In this document: positions 6,296-31,401 of the stretch, one piece after another | Position numbering within the stretch: the first letter of the stretch is position 1 | How the letters are laid out: every line of letters begins with the position of its first letter | IMG/VR virus record: IMGVR_UViG_3300046673_000201 | DNA length: 31,401 nucleotides | Strand: one strand, 5' to 3' | Source: a virus | Notes under the pieces: generated by a model | The model's database searches: none | What the model was told of the DNA's origin: nothing | The model's input: the letters and a program-made list of their open reading frames with translations, nothing else | Translations under genes and position numbers: made by a program

Positions 6296-6499
6296 ATGAA
6301 AACATATACAATAGATACAGATTTTGATTCTGATCTCAGAGAATATATAGCTTTTTTTGACGGCTACGACGGTACGGTAGAAGAAGGTGTTGAATCAGAC
6401 CCTATTGGTCATGGCGATACAGAAACAGAGGCCATGTTGGATTTACTAGACCAATCATTTATGAGAGAGTGTTTAAAAAAAGATAAGGTGAAAAAATGA
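6296..6499 (+). CDS. Hypothetical acidic protein (67 aa); its 3' end lies in the duplicated region
   Basis: ORF with C-terminus ...ETEAMLDLLDQSFMRECLKKDKVKK. Confidence 0.45.
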   Translation: MKTYTIDTDFDSDLREYIAFFDGYDGTVEEGVESDPIGHGDTETEAMLDLLDQSFMRECLKKDKVKK

Positions 6500-6830
6500 A
6501 AAAAGAAACTGTAGAAAAAAGTATTGATGACGTAACAAATGATATGCGGCTAAAAACAGCAGAGGTTCGTGATGACATAGCAGAATTGATAACAAAAACA
6601 GAGGCCATGTTGGATTTACTAGACCAATCATTTATGAGAGGCAGAATTGATAACAAAAACAGAGGCCATGTTGGATTTACTAGACCAATCATTTATGAGA
6701 GAGTGTTTAAAAAAAGATAAGGTGAAAAAATGAAAAAAGAAACTGTAGAAAAAAGTATTGATGACGTAACAAATGATATGTGGCTAAAAACAGCAAAGGC
6801 TCGTGATGACATAGCAGAATTGATAACAAA
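6425..6830. repeat. Nested tandem duplication: a 43-bp block X occurs three times (6425-6467, 6598-6640, 6659-6701; a shared upstream base makes the last two copies 44 bp, from 6597 and 6658), a 129-bp block Y occurs twice (6468-6596, 6702-6830, three mismatches), and a 61-bp unit is tandemly doubled (6580-6640, 6641-6701)
   Basis: Direct reading of the sequence. The X copies are identical. The Y copies differ at 6547/6781, 6563/6797 and 6567/6801. Confidence 0.9.
6496..6720 (+). CDS. Chimeric ORF created by the duplication (N-terminus equals the 6730 ORF, middle equals the C-terminus of the 6296 ORF)
   Basis: MKKETVEKSIDDVTNDM(R/W)LKTA... is shared with 6730-6999, and TEAMLDLLDQSFMR is shared with 6296-6499. 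The tail is read out of frame through repeat copies. Confidence 0.35.
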   Translation: MKKETVEKSIDDVTNDMRLKTAEVRDDIAELITKTEAMLDLLDQSFMRGRIDNKNRGHVGFTRPIIYERVFKKR

Positions 6831-6999: not shown

Positions 7000-7059
7000 T
7001 TTACTTATGTACCGGTATGTGTATATTCGAAGTGTAACTTAAAAATTTGTTCCTTTTAG

Positions 7060-7093
7060 CGGGTATTGTTACGCATAGCAATACCCGTTTTTT
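7060..7093 (+). terminator. Rho-independent terminator ending the early rightward operon
   Basis: Stem cgggtattg (7060-7068) / caatacccg (7079-7087) followed by TTTTTT (7088-7093). Confidence 0.75.
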
Positions 7094-7337
7094 ATCTTTC
7101 TTTAAAGCATTTGCTACAAATCCAATTCCCTTCCATATTTACCGTGCCAGGATTACTACACCTACAACCATCAGGTTTATATACAGTACATCTAGTGAAT
7201 TTAACATAGTTACCCGCTGACGTCTTAACGTTAATGTAATCATCTAAGTTTATCGCAGATTTTGACTCTGGTTTTTTATTGTAGTTACCATATGTCCTAA
7301 CCTCTTCACCGGTTCTGTAGTCTTTATAATTGCTCAT
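7092..7337 (-). CDS. Cys-rich hypothetical protein (81 aa)
   Basis: ORF with C..C....C-type cluster RCTVYKPDGCRCSNPG...WICSKCF. No clear SD. Confidence 0.45.
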   Translation of the reverse strand: MSNYKDYRTGEEVRTYGNYNKKPESKSAINLDDYINVKTSAGNYVKFTRCTVYKPDGCRCSNPGTVNMEGNWICSKCFKER

Positions 7338-7418
7338 ATTAATTTTTAGATAAGTATTTACATGTTTAATATATCTGATACATTCAGCGCACTCATAGAT
7401 TCTCTCTATTTGGACCTG

Positions 7419-7448
7419 AAATACCCGGTGAAAACTGGGTATTTTTTT
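7419..7448. terminator. GC-containing hairpin between two minus-strand genes, with a T-run on the plus strand
   Basis: aaataccc (7419-7426) / gggtattt (7437-7444), with the T-run (7442-7448) beginning inside the 3' arm. On the minus strand the tail is weak (auuuc). Confidence 0.35.
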
Positions 7449-7463
7449 ATCTTATATTGATAT

Positions 7464-8006
7464 TTATTCAGCATATTCCCATATGAAACCGCCAGCTGAT
7501 AGCAATCTACCTTTAGCGCATTTACATATATGACCTCTAAATATTTTAAGAGCACGCTCTGCACCTCTTATAGAGGCATAAGATCTTATATAAACATGAC
7601 CCTTAGTGTACTGTATTATTTTTTTGACGCGTTTATTATCTTTACCTATTCTACTTTTTGACCATATTAAATTAATATAAGAATTATCATAAATATCTTT
7701 ATTTATATGGAAAATGTGTTTTTTATTTCCTGGTTTAGGTAAGTATGTCATTGCGACTAGATTGCATACTTTGTAAGATTTCTTAATATTATTTTTACTT
7801 AAATTAAGGCTTGGACCTTGATTGATAACCATAGATTCCTTTAACCACTGACCGTAATGTCTATGTACACTAAAATTACTACCGCTGATCCATTCCTTTG
7901 GGTAACTCCACACTCTGCCATTTTTAGTAATGGCGTACAATCCCTCATACCCAGGAATATCTTTTATTTCTATACGCTTTGGCTTTACATTGCTTGTAAC
8001 TTTCAT
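7464..8006 (-). CDS. HNH homing endonuclease (NUMOD4 N-terminus, HNH_3 core, IENR1/NUMOD1-like C-terminal DNA-binding motif)
   Basis: [21 protein letters not shown] (NUMOD4), [16 protein letters not shown] (HNH_3-like), [36 protein letters not shown] (IENR1-like). Confidence 0.75.
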
Positions 8007-8221
8007 TTTATTTTATCCAAGTATTTTATTTGACTGTCTTCCTCTTCTTTTTCCTTTTTCTCTTTCTGAATTTTTATATATATCTCTTCTCTGTGTACGC
8101 TTATATCTATTGGAGCGTCTATACCTAGACGCGTTTGTCTACCATTTATTTCTAATATAGATATGCAAATATCATTACCAATTCTGATGCGTTCTCCGAC
8201 TCTTCTTGTAAGAATTAACAT
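8003..8221 (-). CDS. csrA: CsrA/RsmA-family RNA-binding translational regulator
   Basis: [52 protein letters not shown] aligns along its length with enterobacterial CsrA ([10 protein letters not shown]...[13 protein letters not shown]). There is an extra KE-rich tail. GGAGG RBS at 8229-8233 (minus strand). Its stop overlaps the HNH start. Confidence 0.9.
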
Positions 8222-8248
8222 TTAAAACCTCCGTAGGGCGAACCCCTA

Positions 8249-8311
8249 TTATTTTTTAATTAATATAATTACCATAAAACTTACGATAGCGAATATTAAA
8301 AATGATGCCAT
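8249..8311 (-). CDS. Hydrophobic micropeptide 1 (20 aa)
   Basis: MASFLIFAIVSFMVIILIKK. Member of a four-ORF tandem paralogous set upstream of csrA. Weak AAGG SD. Confidence 0.35.
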   Translation of the reverse strand: MASFLIFAIVSFMVIILIKK

Positions 8312-8327
8312 TTTATAGACCTTTATT

Positions 8328-8405
8328 TTATTCTTTATAAACTAATATAGCGGTTAAAATAGTAGTTAAAAGAGCGGCTATAACTAACAATAGAAATACT
8401 ATCAT
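8328..8405 (-). CDS. Hydrophobic micropeptide 2 (25 aa)
   Basis: MIVFLLLVIAALLTTILTAILVYKE. Its ATG overlaps the TGA of peptide 3 (ATGA). GGGAAG SD. Confidence 0.4.
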   Translation of the reverse strand: MIVFLLLVIAALLTTILTAILVYKE

Positions 8406-8473
8406 CGTTCTTCCCTACTAATCAAAAGACCTATTAACATACCACCAAGTACGAATAACAAAAATGTTATCAT
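8402..8473 (-). CDS. Hydrophobic micropeptide 3 (23 aa)
   Basis: MITFLLFVLGGMLIGLLISREER. GAGGG SD. Confidence 0.4.
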   Translation of the reverse strand: MITFLLFVLGGMLIGLLISREER

Positions 8474-8485
8474 TTTATAACCCTC

Positions 8486-8539
8486 TTAGTCTTTGAAAAG
8501 TAAAATACAAGCTATTAAAAATAATAATGACACTACCAT
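8486..8539 (-). CDS. Hydrophobic micropeptide 4 (17 aa)
   Basis: MVVSLLFLIACILLFKD. AGGAG SD 7 nt upstream. Confidence 0.4.
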   Translation of the reverse strand: MVVSLLFLIACILLFKD

Positions 8540-8570
8540 TTTATTCTCCTATCGATTTGTTATTAATTTA

Positions 8571-8599
8571 TTATAACTACTTATAGTAAGTAGCTATAA
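8571..8599. promoter_or_regulatory. 29-bp near-perfect palindrome (possible operator) upstream of the micropeptide-csrA operon
   Basis: ttataa-ctactta-tag-taagtag-ctataa. One mismatch, 3-nt centre. Confidence 0.35.
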
Positions 8600-8646
8600 T
8601 TGAATATAGCAGATAATTTATGAAAGTGTTATTTATTTTAAATTTG

Positions 8647-8757
8647 TTTACAAATATAAAAATTATTGTATTATATATCTATCTCTGTCCAAAAGATGAG
8701 ATCAAAAAGTAAAAGACAAGATTTGCCCGAATATTTAATTATATCCGGGCTTTTTTT
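8647..8757 (+). ncRNA. Candidate small RNA unit: promoter, roughly 75-nt transcript, intrinsic terminator
   Basis: TTTACA (8647-8652), TG-extended ATTATA (8667-8675), then hairpin gcccgaatat/atatccgggc (8725-8750) followed by T7 (8751-8757). No SD-led ORF inside. Confidence 0.35.
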
Positions 8758-8775
8758 GGCCTATCAAAAATATAA

Positions 8776-9206: not shown

Positions 9207-9548
9207 ATGAAAACATTGAGCAAGAAAGAGATTGAATGCGTAAACGGTGGTGATTTAAATTGTCCAAAGACAGCTCTGAGTACAGCAAGTGCAATTTGTG
9301 TTGGCATAGGATCAGCATTGCAGGCATGGGGACAATCAATTCATGTTGCTGCCCCTAATCTTGGAGATGCAACCCAGACAGCCAAGCAAAGGGTAATAGG
9401 TATGACTATTAGTATAGGTGGTTTAGTATTAAATTGTTTTAGTTTTGCTTTAGCTGCATTATCATCAGCAGAACAGAGTTGTGATTTTACTACCAATACT
9501 ACTGTAACAAACTCAACTATACCCACCAATTCTACAACCACTCCATGA
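9207..9548 (+). CDS. Double-glycine-leader (bacteriocin/microcin-type) secreted peptide precursor, 113 aa
   Basis: MKTLSKKEIECVNGG-DLN... fits the class II bacteriocin leader consensus. The predicted mature part has two Gly/Ala-rich hydrophobic helices, 4 Cys and a Thr/Asn-rich tail with NTT, NST, NST. Confidence 0.6.
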   Translation: MKTLSKKEIECVNGGDLNCPKTALSTASAICVGIGSALQAWGQSIHVAAPNLGDATQTAKQRVIGMTISIGGLVLNCFSFALAALSSAEQSCDFTTNTTVTNSTIPTNSTTTP

Positions 9549-15670: not shown

Positions 15671-16492
15671 TTATTTTTTTACCCTACCAAAGAATTTTTT
15701 AGCTTCATCGCATAATGGAGCTTTTATTCTTTTGATTTCGTCTTTATATCTTATTGATTTACTATTTATTCTCTTCCCTTTAAATACTTTAAACTTCAGT
15801 GATACAACTTCCCTACCGGCTTTGTTCTCTTCATAATCAAATTGTATATCAGTTTTTTCATTTATTTCTTTTTTTGCTATATTTAATACTTCTTGTTTTA
15901 TATTTCCGTATAACCTATAGGTCTTCTTATCTTTTATTCCCATCATGTCTTTAAATCTATCGAGTGTAAAAGTTTTACCATATTTTTTATTACAAGCTAA
16001 AATCATATAAAGCCTTATTGCATACATTGATTCTAGTTTAAAAATATATGATATTTCCAGTTGGGTAAAATTAGATTTTAATGAAAAAATATGTGGTATT
16101 ATTTCAGGATGAAGCTTGAACTTAATCATGTGATCAATTTCACTGTAAGATATACTATAAAACCAATGTACCATAATCCATTCTTCTTTCTGTCTTATAT
16201 GTATTACTCTTTCTGATAGACTCAGGCATACCTTGTATATTTCTTTTGGCATATCTTTGATATCTAAATTCATATCTTTGATATATTCTTTACCTGAAAT
16301 AGATATTTCTTTTCCAAGATAAATACCGTCTTCAATATACTCACCGCCTTTAAACCAATCATCTTCGTGTGTTTGGCTTAATATCCATAACAACAATCTT
16401 TGCTCTTGAACGCTATATGGTCTTGCCTGTTTTGCTTCTGCTACTAAATTTGACACTACCGCCACCTTTATTACTTTTTTATCATTTTGCAT
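15671..16492 (-). CDS. Rep_3-family (RepB/pi/RepA-like) iteron-binding replication initiator
   Basis: NLVAEAKQARPYSVQEQRLLLWILSQ, FTQLEISYIFKLESMYAIRLYMIL and TLDRFKDMMGIKDKKTYRLYGNIKQEVLNIAKKEINEKTDIQFDYEENKAGREVVSLKFKV match the winged-helix Rep_3 pattern. Iterons lie immediately upstream. Confidence 0.85.
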   Translation of the reverse strand: MQNDKKVIKVAVVSNLVAEAKQARPYSVQEQRLLLWILSQTHEDDWFKGGEYIEDGIYLGKEISISGKEYIKDMNLDIKDMPKEIYKVCLSLSERVIHIRQKEEWIMVHWFYSISYSEIDHMIKFKLHPEIIPHIFSLKSNFTQLEISYIFKLESMYAIRLYMILACNKKYGKTFTLDRFKDMMGIKDKKTYRLYGNIKQEVLNIAKKEINEKTDIQFDYEENKAGREVVSLKFKVFKGKRINSKSIRYKDEIKRIKAPLCDEAKKFFGRVKK

Positions 16493-16596: not shown

Positions 16597-16597
16597 A

Positions 16598-16692
16598 AGC
16601 TGGGGCAAACCCAATAGTAGTTGGGGCAAACCCAATAGTTGGAGTAAAAAAGCTGGGGCAAACCCAATAGTAGTTGGGGCAAACCCAATAGT
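16598..16692. repeat. Replication-origin iterons: four 21-bp direct repeats ag(c/t)tggggcaaacccaatagt in two abutting pairs
   Basis: Copies at 16598-16618, 16619-16639, 16651-16671 and 16672-16692. Each pair is followed by tggag. An A/T-rich stretch follows at about 16797-16850, and an 8-bp inverted repeat aggtacca/tggtacct lies at 16696-16703 / 16742-16749. Confidence 0.85.
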
Positions 16693-17025
16693 TGGAGGTA
16701 CCACCCTTCGCTACAGACCGCATAAAACCTATATATTTTGATGGTACCTTAAAAGCCCAAAGCTTTCAAAGTAAAGATATAAAGTTTTCAAAGAGAAAAA
16801 TAGGAATTTTTTTATCAAATTTAAAAGCAAAAAAGCAAAAAAATGAGATTCTCTGATTTATGATTTACAAAACAAACACCATCCAAATAAATACCGGACC
16901 AATCATATTAAAAACGTCTTTACTTGACCGAGGGGTGGTAAGTATACTGCCGGATAGTTTTACGAGGGTTAAATATTAATCCGTCCGTATTTTTAACGGA
17001 CCAAAATCTATTGCAGAACATAATC

Positions 17026-19631: not shown

Positions 19632-20315
19632 TTGACTCATAAATTGCCCCATGGTATTTTGCAATTTATGATAAAAAATATAAATAGATTAGATTTTGAA
19701 GGCAAGATTCACAGACTCCCTAAAGATGGTTGTTGGGTTTGGACTGGTGCCAAGACAGAAAAGGGTTACGGTACATTTTATACAGATAATAATCGGTATA
19801 GAGCTCATAGAATATCTTATGAACTTTATGTTGGTGAGATTCCAGATGGAATGTTTGTATGTCATAAATGTGATAATCCTTGGTGTGTAAATCCTGCACA
19901 TCTCTGGATTGGTACCAATGCTGATAATCAGCAAGATAAGCATAATAAAGGTAGAGGCAAGGGCTGGATTGTTAACGATGAGGCTAAGTCTAGAATTAGT
20001 GAGTTACATAAAGGTAACACATATAATTTAGGACGAACTCTTAGCGATGATCACAAAGCCAAACTTAGCATTGCTCACACAGGTAAAACGCTTAGCGAAG
20101 AGCATAAGGCTAAGATTACTGCTAGTCTTGTTGGTCATAAAGTTAGTTCTGAGACAAAAGAAAAACTTAGGGCTGGATCTACTGGTAATAAGAATGCTTT
20201 AGGTAAAGTACGTAGTCCTGAATCTATCGAAAGATATAGGAAGGCAGCTATTAAAAGAGAGGCTGTTAAGAAAGCTAACAAATCTTTAAATGATATTAAC
20301 AATTTAATAACTTGA
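19632..20315 (+). CDS. HNH homing endonuclease (HNH_3 core plus NUMOD3 repeats)
   Basis: CWVWTGAKTEKGYGTF...AHRISYEL...VCHKCDNPWCVNPAHLWIGTNADNQQD, then repeated (H/S)KG/TGK..SEEHKAK motifs. The start is ambiguous (TTG 19632 or ATG 19668). Confidence 0.8.
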   Translation: MTHKLPHGILQFMIKNINRLDFEGKIHRLPKDGCWVWTGAKTEKGYGTFYTDNNRYRAHRISYELYVGEIPDGMFVCHKCDNPWCVNPAHLWIGTNADNQQDKHNKGRGKGWIVNDEAKSRISELHKGNTYNLGRTLSDDHKAKLSIAHTGKTLSEEHKAKITASLVGHKVSSETKEKLRAGSTGNKNALGKVRSPESIERYRKAAIKREAVKKANKSLNDINNLIT

Positions 20316-30883: not shown

Positions 30884-31401
30884 ATGGCTAATACTAAATA
30901 TTTAAACCAAGTTAAACTTACGGCAACAGTAACGCCAAGTAATACTGCTATAGCGGCGGGTAATGATGGCCAGGTTGTAGCACAAAACTTACAAGGACAG
31001 ATAAATTATATTAATTCTACTAGTTCCGCCGCTTATGCAGCAGATATAGTTGGTGGTATAGCTAACGATATCCCATATCAAACAGCAGCTAATGTTACGT
31101 CATTTATAACCCCTGTAAACTCAGCTGTATTAATTAGTAGCGTTGCTGGCGTTCCATCGATGGCCACGACTTTACCGGCTGTTGGTATTGGAACATGCAC
31201 GGTAACCGATCCTAAAACTGCAGGATCTGCTAGTATAAATACTGCCTTATCTGATGTATATGGCGCTATTCCATCTGTGTCTTACCCAATAGCAATAAAT
31301 AATGGAGGAACTGGACAGACTACAGCGCAATTAGCTATGAACGCATTAGCTGGCGCAGTCACCACTAAATACTATTTACGTGGAGATAACACCAATGTAA
31401 C
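30884..31401 (+). CDS. Tail fibre protein 4, 5' portion; continues through the circular junction into 1-1706
   Basis: The ATG at 30884 overlaps the upstream TAA (TAATTATG region). Hand translation MANTKYLNQVKLTATV...DPKTAGSASINTALSDVYGAIPSVSYPIAINNGGTGQTT has no stop to the window end. Absent from the ORF track because it is open-ended. Confidence 0.8.
   Translation, partial: MANTKYLNQVKLTATVTPSNTAIAAGNDGQVVAQNLQGQINYINSTSSAAYAADIVGGIANDIPYQTAANVTSFITPVNSAVLISSVAGVPSMATTLPAVGIGTCTVTDPKTAGSASINTALSDVYGAIPSVSYPIAINNGGTGQTTAQLAMNALAGAVTTKYYLRGDNTNV
31275..31401. repeat. Terminal direct repeat copy 2 (identical to 1-127)
   Basis: Same 127 nt as the window start. The reading frame of the ORF starting at 30884 continues into frame 3 of the window start. 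Confidence 0.95.

Follow-up and report, generated by a model that had tools for sequence, protein, structure and literature searches.

CsrA on chromosomes, plasmids and phages

CsrA acts as a dimer that recognises GGA motifs in the leaders of mRNAs, in many cases at the Shine–Dalgarno (SD) sequence, and alters translation. A CsrA copy carried by a mobile element is thought to let that element seize a global post-transcriptional network, and experimental proof of this exists only for a plasmid homologue, RsmQ of pQBR103, which rewires host behaviour (Thompson et al. 2023, PMC9928087). For phages, takeover through CsrA is so far a bioinformatic inference; the literature that we searched held no functional study of a phage-encoded CsrA and nothing linking CsrA to phage-plasmids. 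The phage genes themselves are an already documented category, with a PHROG family and two surveys. One found csrA in 30 of 2,517 phage genomes (Sobrero & Valverde 2020, PMC7366521). The other reported many more phage copies and proposed phage RsmA proteins as anti-CRISPR-like regulators, RsmA being a repressor of three CRISPR–Cas systems in Serratia (Campa et al. 2021, PMC8450108). Relatives of CsrA are present in 86 GenBank phage records, mainly those of Pseudomonas and Vibrio phages, in at least 252 IMG/VR contigs and in 252 PLSDB plasmid records, and are common on plasmids of Legionella and Piscirickettsia. A preliminary description of the locus studied here implied that a CsrA gene on a phage was novel, which overstated the case, as homologues had been surveyed earlier (PMC7366521, PMC8450108).

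Our analysis covered a 31,401-nt stretch of viral DNA (hereafter, the window) that carries one such gene. Its product resembles the chromosomal proteins CsrA of Escherichia coli (1y00), RsmA of Pseudomonas aeruginosa (1vpz) and RsmE of Pseudomonas fluorescens (2jpp) in length class, gap-free alignment and predicted fold. It differs from them in being phage-encoded, in having Ile in place of K38 and in a longer K/E-rich tail that is predicted to be helical, and, unlike for the chromosomal Csr systems, the window shows no sign of a linked sponge sRNA or of control of the BarA/UvrY type. The locus also resembles the CsrA/RsmA genes of other phages (phrog_9500; RsmM of P. aeruginosa phages; those of Vibrio, Serratia, Erwinia and Burkholderia phages) in being an accessory gene of a tailed-phage genome, and it shares with the phrog_9500-type copies that it was identified by sequence alone. 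All GenBank phage copies are nevertheless less than 60% identical to the window CsrA, the best IMG/VR copy reaches 70%, and 80 viral CsrA loci have no other genes in common with the window phage in the flanks retrieved (up to 6 kb per side). Compared with those copies, the window csrA is set in a phage-plasmid-like genome with a Rep_3 initiator and iterons, where it comes after four micro-ORFs and overlaps a putative homing endonuclease gene.

With RsmQ, the CsrA genes of Legionella and Piscirickettsia plasmids and the CsrA paralogues of integrative conjugative elements, the window csrA shares its residence on a mobile element, again one with a plasmid-type replicon, and mobile-element CsrA of the RsmQ type can join the host Rsm/Csr network. 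RsmQ differs in its carrier, a large conjugative plasmid, and in having been studied experimentally; the window copy, known from sequence, belongs to a phage genome of 31 kb. The window thus adds a canonical-type CsrA in a new, uncultured and probably plasmid-like phage lineage. The gene opens no new question by itself; the new points are contextual, namely the unsampled phage or phage-plasmid lineage, the recurrence of CsrA-like genes within it and an unusual array of four micro-ORFs before csrA.

An intact CsrA gene

The csrA gene (positions 8003–8221, minus strand) starts with ATG and is predicted to encode a 72-aa RNA-binding protein of the CsrA/RsmA family, with matches in Pfam, NCBIfam and PHROG. 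The product aligns with positions 1–52 of the 53-position Pfam CsrA model (PF02599) with an E value of 1.7e-21 and a score of 76.4 bits (gathering cut-off 27 bits); it passes two NCBIfam equivalogs (NF002469, 92.6 bits with a cut-off of 73; TIGR00202, 81.4 bits with a cut-off of 70.1) and matches the PHROG 'CsrA-like regulator' phrog_9500 (E = 1.4e-26). Its alignments with E. coli CsrA (1y00, E = 1.2e-17, 31 of 58 residues or 53% identical) and P. aeruginosa RsmA (1vpz, E = 3.7e-18) are free of gaps, so that residues can be numbered as in E. coli CsrA.

Residue conservation was read from alignments of 35 to 37 sequences together with 1vpz, 1y00 and E. coli CsrA. The phage protein keeps L2, L4, R6 and R7 in β1 and V42, H43, R44, E45, E46 and I47 in the β5/helix region, and position 40 carries the conservative replacement V40I. 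We take the critical RNA-binding residues to be L2, L4, R6, R7, V40, V42, R44, E46 and I47, following published mutagenesis. Every invariant column of the 35-sequence alignment of closest homologues is retained; position 38 is Ile, where at least 90% of the aligned homologues have K38.

The core of the protein comprises residues 1–52, beyond which a K/E-rich C-terminal extension is predicted to be helical through residue 71. An AlphaFold2 model of the monomer (mean pLDDT 77.4) has strands at residues 11–14, 18–26 and 29–35 and a helix at 44–71, and all 15 of its top Foldseek matches in the PDB are CsrA, RsmA or RsmE chains (probability 1.00; target TM 0.49–0.77, with the ten best at 0.65–0.69). 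In this model β1 and β5 are unpaired, as expected of a strand-swapped dimer; conservation suggests that phage CsrA forms a homodimer and binds GGA-motif RNA. The gene is a genuine, intact accessory gene of the CsrA/RsmA family. The preliminary description had called its product a full-length CsrA with the equivalents of R44, E46 and I47 conserved, and both statements hold: the family on the PF02599 match, the two equivalogs, the PHROG hit, the gap-free alignments and the fold, and the three residues at the same positions in the gap-free alignment with E. coli CsrA and RsmA. It had further singled out the Lys/Glu-rich tail as a special addition, a view that we do not retain, as the closest CsrA homologues commonly end in variable, charged tails, among them chromosomal proteins like that of Coxiella.

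The 55-residue core is up to 73% identical to that of uncultured homologues and 69% identical to that of Coxiella burnetii CsrA. Core identity levels off at 67–73% over many unrelated sequences, and the phylogeny that had been suggested as a route to host clade and origin gave no resolution and was dropped for donor inference. An identical CsrA protein is encoded on 18 metagenomic contigs from several samples; because these contigs are at least 99.9% identical, with gene order unchanged and no polymorphism, purifying selection on csrA is not demonstrable from them.

A phage genome with a plasmid-type replicon

The first 127 bases of the window recur at its end (1–127 and 31275–31401). This 127-nt terminal repeat indicates that the window is a complete, circularly assembled genome of 31,274 bp. 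PHROG and profile searches identified a small terminase subunit (TerS), a large one (TerL), a P22-type portal, and head-closure and DNA-ejection proteins, and the endolysin is a GH108 enzyme with a PG_binding_3 domain; these genes bear out the phage origin that had been proposed. The phage that carries csrA is thus a small, uncultured, podovirus-like phage of 31.3 kb that probably persists as a plasmid.

Plasmid persistence is suggested by a Rep_3 plasmid-type initiator gene (rep, 15671–16492, minus strand; Rep3_N E = 3.3e-24, Rep3_C E = 4.2e-19) and four iterons, TGGGGCAAACCCAATAGT, at 16597–16697, about 100–200 bp upstream of it. A gene for an HTH_3 repressor-like protein is present as well, and no integrase or recombinase family was detected among the scanned window ORFs of at least 160 aa. 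Together, the Rep_3 initiator, its iterons and the lack of a detected integrase make a phage-plasmid probable. Neither ParA/ParB nor a type II toxin–antitoxin system was found in the window, and since it has no recognisable partition system we put a plasmid lifestyle as probable for this phage. Three relatives (L096, L114 and L115) encode a ParA-type ATPase, and L096 also a ParE/RHH pair. The TerL proteins of related phages are 62–70% identical to that of the window, none of the contigs that bear the 120 best TerL relatives exceeds about 41 kb, and the lineage looks like an uncultured phage-plasmid group.

Searches for a host were largely empty: megablast against GenBank phages gave no match, a portal scan across GTDB genomes found nothing, a TerL-profile scan found only three short contigs of metagenome-assembled genomes with mutually inconsistent taxonomies, and a comparison of TerL with 5.8 billion proteins returned no match from a named organism. 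The nearest cultured phages are very distant (about 22% identity for the portal and about 31–33% for TerL), and all are from Gammaproteobacteria; the best matches to full-length Rep_3 are Piscirickettsia plasmids, at 31% identity. The type of CsrA, the endolysin, these nearest cultured phages and the Rep_3 match to Piscirickettsia are weak hints of a low-G+C gammaproteobacterial host.

Two of the related phages carry divergent CsrA-like genes of their own (L096, 149–373, minus strand; L115, 288–497, minus strand). Their products begin MITL[TS]R, are 42–47% identical to the window CsrA and score below the NCBIfam cut-offs. Both genes lie in the leftward operon of an HTH_3 repressor, a placement that suggests expression in the carrier state. 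The recurrence of CsrA-like genes next to repressors in this lineage hints that CsrA activity matters in that state.

A predicted homing endonuclease behind csrA

The stop codon of csrA overlaps the start codon of the next gene in an ATGA at 8003–8006 (minus strand; TCAT on the plus strand), as had been reported. That gene (7464–8006, minus strand) is predicted to encode a free-standing, I-HmuI-like HNH homing endonuclease of 180 aa. The assignment draws on NUMOD4 (24.6 bits, cut-off 23.4) and on the PHROG HNH endonuclease families (E = 7.6e-17); matches to HNH_3 (14.8 bits, cut-off 24.8) and I-HmuI_NUMOD-like (20.4 bits, cut-off 27) fall below their cut-offs, alignment with I-HmuI (1u3e) is weak (E = 0.064), and inspection by eye picks out the His and Asn residues of the H-N-N motif (FH...DN...INL). 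In its combination of NUMOD4 with an HNH_3-like core and a C-terminal NUMOD-like segment, a predicted DNA-binding domain, over about 180 aa, the protein resembles free-standing phage HNH enzymes of the I-HmuI family, and in following another gene so closely that its start codon overlaps the stop codon of that gene, the locus resembles intergenic insertions of the T4 mob/seg style. It differs from the I-HmuI family in that it is not intron-encoded and in that its HNH_3 score is under the Pfam cut-off. Ahead of the HNH start codon, SD-like sequence is limited to a GGA at about −13, and for this reason translation of the endonuclease is probably coupled to that of csrA by termination–reinitiation.

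Homologues of the endonuclease (27–41% identity) occur in six related loci (L096, L097, L098, L099, L114 and L117), in each of which they lie between TerL and portal, where the window has a 98-bp gap. The interval between TerL and portal is a classic homing-endonuclease site, and the presence of homologues at different sites in otherwise syntenic genomes marks the gene as mobile. No HNH gene adjoins the CsrA-like genes of L096 and L115, no related HNH gene lies downstream of the closest CsrA homologues elsewhere (P0002 and P0006, both in phage-like contexts), and none of 80 IMG/VR CsrA loci contains a homologue of the HNH gene. Variants of the window phage with an empty site were not found, so the more distant relatives are the informative ones. 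Because relatives have their HNH homologues in the TerL–portal interval and their CsrA-like genes have no HNH neighbour, the adjacency is best read as a lineage-specific insertion of a selfish endonuclease with no functional pairing with CsrA. Of the two possibilities raised in the preliminary description, that the endonuclease had lodged next to csrA agrees with these comparisons, and that it mobilises csrA found no support.

A second HNH gene (19632–20315, plus strand) immediately follows the capsid-like gene o18264, and a counterpart with 62% identity occupies the same site in relatives (L100, 18433–19185). One relative has tandem HNH genes, and the TerL of some relatives contains inteins (PF14528). 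Homing elements are plentiful in the lineage.

The putative leftward operon and its signals

We infer that csrA lies in a leftward operon of its own, in which four micro-ORFs are followed by csrA, the HNH gene and a gene for a Cys-rich protein of 81 aa; rightward early/replication genes and rightward packaging genes flank it. The best promoter match for the operon is a candidate sigma-70-like site at 8738–8767 (minus strand; TTGATA-18-TATAAT, 11 of 12 positions). The SD sequence of csrA, GGAGG at 8228–8232 (minus strand), stands six bases before the ATG in the context ACGGAGG and is the strongest of the region, in agreement with the strong ribosome-binding site noted earlier. A short G+C-rich hairpin, TAGGG-loop-CCCTA (8233–8249), separates the last micro-ORF from csrA and scores as terminator-like on the plus strand. 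A second GGA is found at csrA codons 9–10, 27 nt into the ORF, and with the GGA of the SD it makes up a candidate autoregulatory site pair. The csrA leader folds no better than shuffled sequence (z = 0.68), and a structured presentation of GGA in the leader was rejected on this score.

The four micro-ORFs of the preliminary description are present upstream of csrA on the minus strand at 8249–8539, each with an SD-like motif: m1 (17 aa, 8486–8539), m2 (23 aa, 8402–8473), m3 (25 aa, 8328–8405, with an ATGA overlap with m2) and m4 (20 aa, 8249–8311). All four encode single hydrophobic helices with charged C-termini, arranged back-to-back in an otherwise ORF-free stretch and at a density far above that of such hydrophobic micro-ORFs elsewhere in the window (about 0.3 per kb per strand). 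Their products might be type-I-toxin-like or membrane-active peptides. We also considered whether such micro-ORFs generally accompany phage csrA genes and rejected this, with 2 found upstream in 79 viral loci against 6 on the control strand. At the other end of the operon, the last gene (7092–7337, minus strand) encodes the Cys-rich 81-aa protein, which matches no family and has a homologue in two relatives (L100 and L101), there on the other strand.

Several signals on the opposite strand accompany these genes. Terminator-like hairpins with T-runs read on the plus strand lie inside the minus-strand csrA cassette at 7058–7089, 7418–7445 and 8233–8249, and the cassette region holds 5 terminator-like sites against 1.0 expected from shuffles; such hairpins may stop transcription of the rightward early operon from reading through. 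There is a promoter-like site, TTTACA-16-TATTAT (8647–8674, plus strand), and about 50 nt past it a strong hairpin, GCCCGAATAT...ATATCCGGGC, with a run of seven T (8724–8757). Between them, 8647–8757 (plus strand) could give rise to an RNA of roughly 75 nt, spanning 8681–8757, in antisense orientation to the csrA operon leader. A palindrome with 14-bp arms lies near this putative antisense RNA, at 8570–8600.

It is a long shot that the leftward operon serves the phage-plasmid in maintenance or host control, as a module in which m1–m4 would be type-I-toxin-like and the translation of m1 and m3, from SDs containing GGA, would be restrained by co-transcribed CsrA; the putative antisense RNA, running from the promoter-like site to the terminator hairpin, may contribute too. 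Were this so, it would be a CsrA-based toxin-control circuit of a sort not described before.

Proposed role of phage CsrA and alternatives

From what is known of the family, phage CsrA would form the usual domain-swapped dimer and bind GGA in mRNA 5′ leaders, typically over the SD, with changes in translation or stability. Its main targets would most likely be host transcripts, so that CsrA activity would be added to the host Csr/Rsm network and the expression of host motility, biofilm, carbon-flux or defence functions shifted in favour of the element, as shown for plasmid RsmQ. We favour host targets because the window offers few of its own. Rfam gave no Csr/Rsm sRNA match at E values up to 1 over the whole window, and a GGA-density scan found no GGA-dense non-coding stretch. 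The phage ribosome-binding sites are mostly of the AAGG, GAGG or AGGT type and contain no GGA. The scan of the genome for GGA that had been suggested at the outset thus yielded few ribosome-binding sites, among them those of csrA itself, m1, m3, rep, the endolysin and the capsid-like o18264. The preliminary description had raised host reprogramming, titration of sRNAs and control of late phage translation, all of which stay candidate roles. With no sponge RNA in the window, a sponge, if there is one, would be that of the host. The GGA in the csrA SD would probably also let phage CsrA repress the operon that encodes it, and the HNH gene would be an independent selfish insertion that uses csrA transcription and terminating ribosomes for low-level expression. 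We assign a probability of roughly 0.7 to this reading as a whole, that is, an intact accessory csrA aimed at host transcripts and repressing its own operon, with an independent, selfish HNH gene behind it; the steps past sequence and fold conservation are ones that we infer.

The main rival, which we regard as unlikely but weigh seriously, is that CsrA mainly controls the genes of the phage-plasmid itself, in the decision between lysis and carrier state, in replication or in maintenance. A parallel for such a role comes from the CsrA paralogues associated with integrative conjugative elements of Legionella, and the abundance of CsrA genes on Legionella and Piscirickettsia plasmids points the same way, as do the GGA-containing SDs just listed and the divergent CsrA-like genes in the repressor operons of L096 and L115. 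The window csrA is, however, outside the repressor operon, GGA is missing from most of the phage ribosome-binding sites, and the window CsrA belongs to the canonical chromosomal type and scores above the equivalog cut-offs that the copies of its relatives fail; given how low their identity to it is, a common role is not required. A special case of host manipulation, in which the extra CsrA would repress host CRISPR–Cas or other defence mRNAs, takes its appeal from the repression of three Serratia CRISPR–Cas systems by RsmA and the anti-CRISPR-like role proposed for phage RsmA (PMC8450108); nothing in the window bears on host CRISPR–Cas or on GGA sites in cas leaders, and we judge it improbable.

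Two further accounts bear on the csrA gene more narrowly. Phage CsrA could act as a decoy that titrates host sRNAs of the CsrB/RsmY/RsmZ type and so frees host CsrA, or, through altered residues and its tail, could escape sponge control. Its RNA-binding residues are intact and the window has no sponge RNA of its own, so that host RNAs would be the partners in any sponge interaction, but the outcome of titration would be indistinguishable from plain addition of CsrA activity and nothing apart from K38I speaks for altered specificity, which leaves this account quite improbable. Very improbable, in our view, is that csrA is flanking DNA co-converted during HNH homing, with no selected function in the window phage. 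The ATGA overlap does join the two genes, the cassette is below the genome average in G+C (csrA 30.6%, HNH gene 32.0%, genome 35.9%) and the lineage abounds in homing elements, among them the second HNH gene, the tandem HNH genes of a relative and the TerL inteins. Against hitch-hiking, the csrA ORF is intact and keeps every invariant residue, its SD is the strongest of the region, CsrA-like genes with no adjacent HNH gene recur in at least two related phages, and a csrA–HNH pair that could have served as donor occurs in 0 of 80 viral CsrA loci.

Further features of the genome

To the left of the csrA operon, a tandem duplication at 6416–6830 includes an exact 61-nt doubling and has created three small ORFs with partly repeated sequence (6296, 6496 and 6730). 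A metagenomic variant (L004) is missing one copy of this duplication.

To the right of the operon lies an ORF of 113 aa (9207–9548, plus strand) that has no match in Pfam or NCBIfam. The start of its product, MKTLSKKEIECVNGG, resembles a double-glycine leader and is followed by a Gly/Ala-rich hydrophobic peptide; the product may be microcin-like or class II bacteriocin-like. A homologue with 39% identity and the motif ...SEVSGGG is encoded in relatives (L100, 7404–7709, minus strand).
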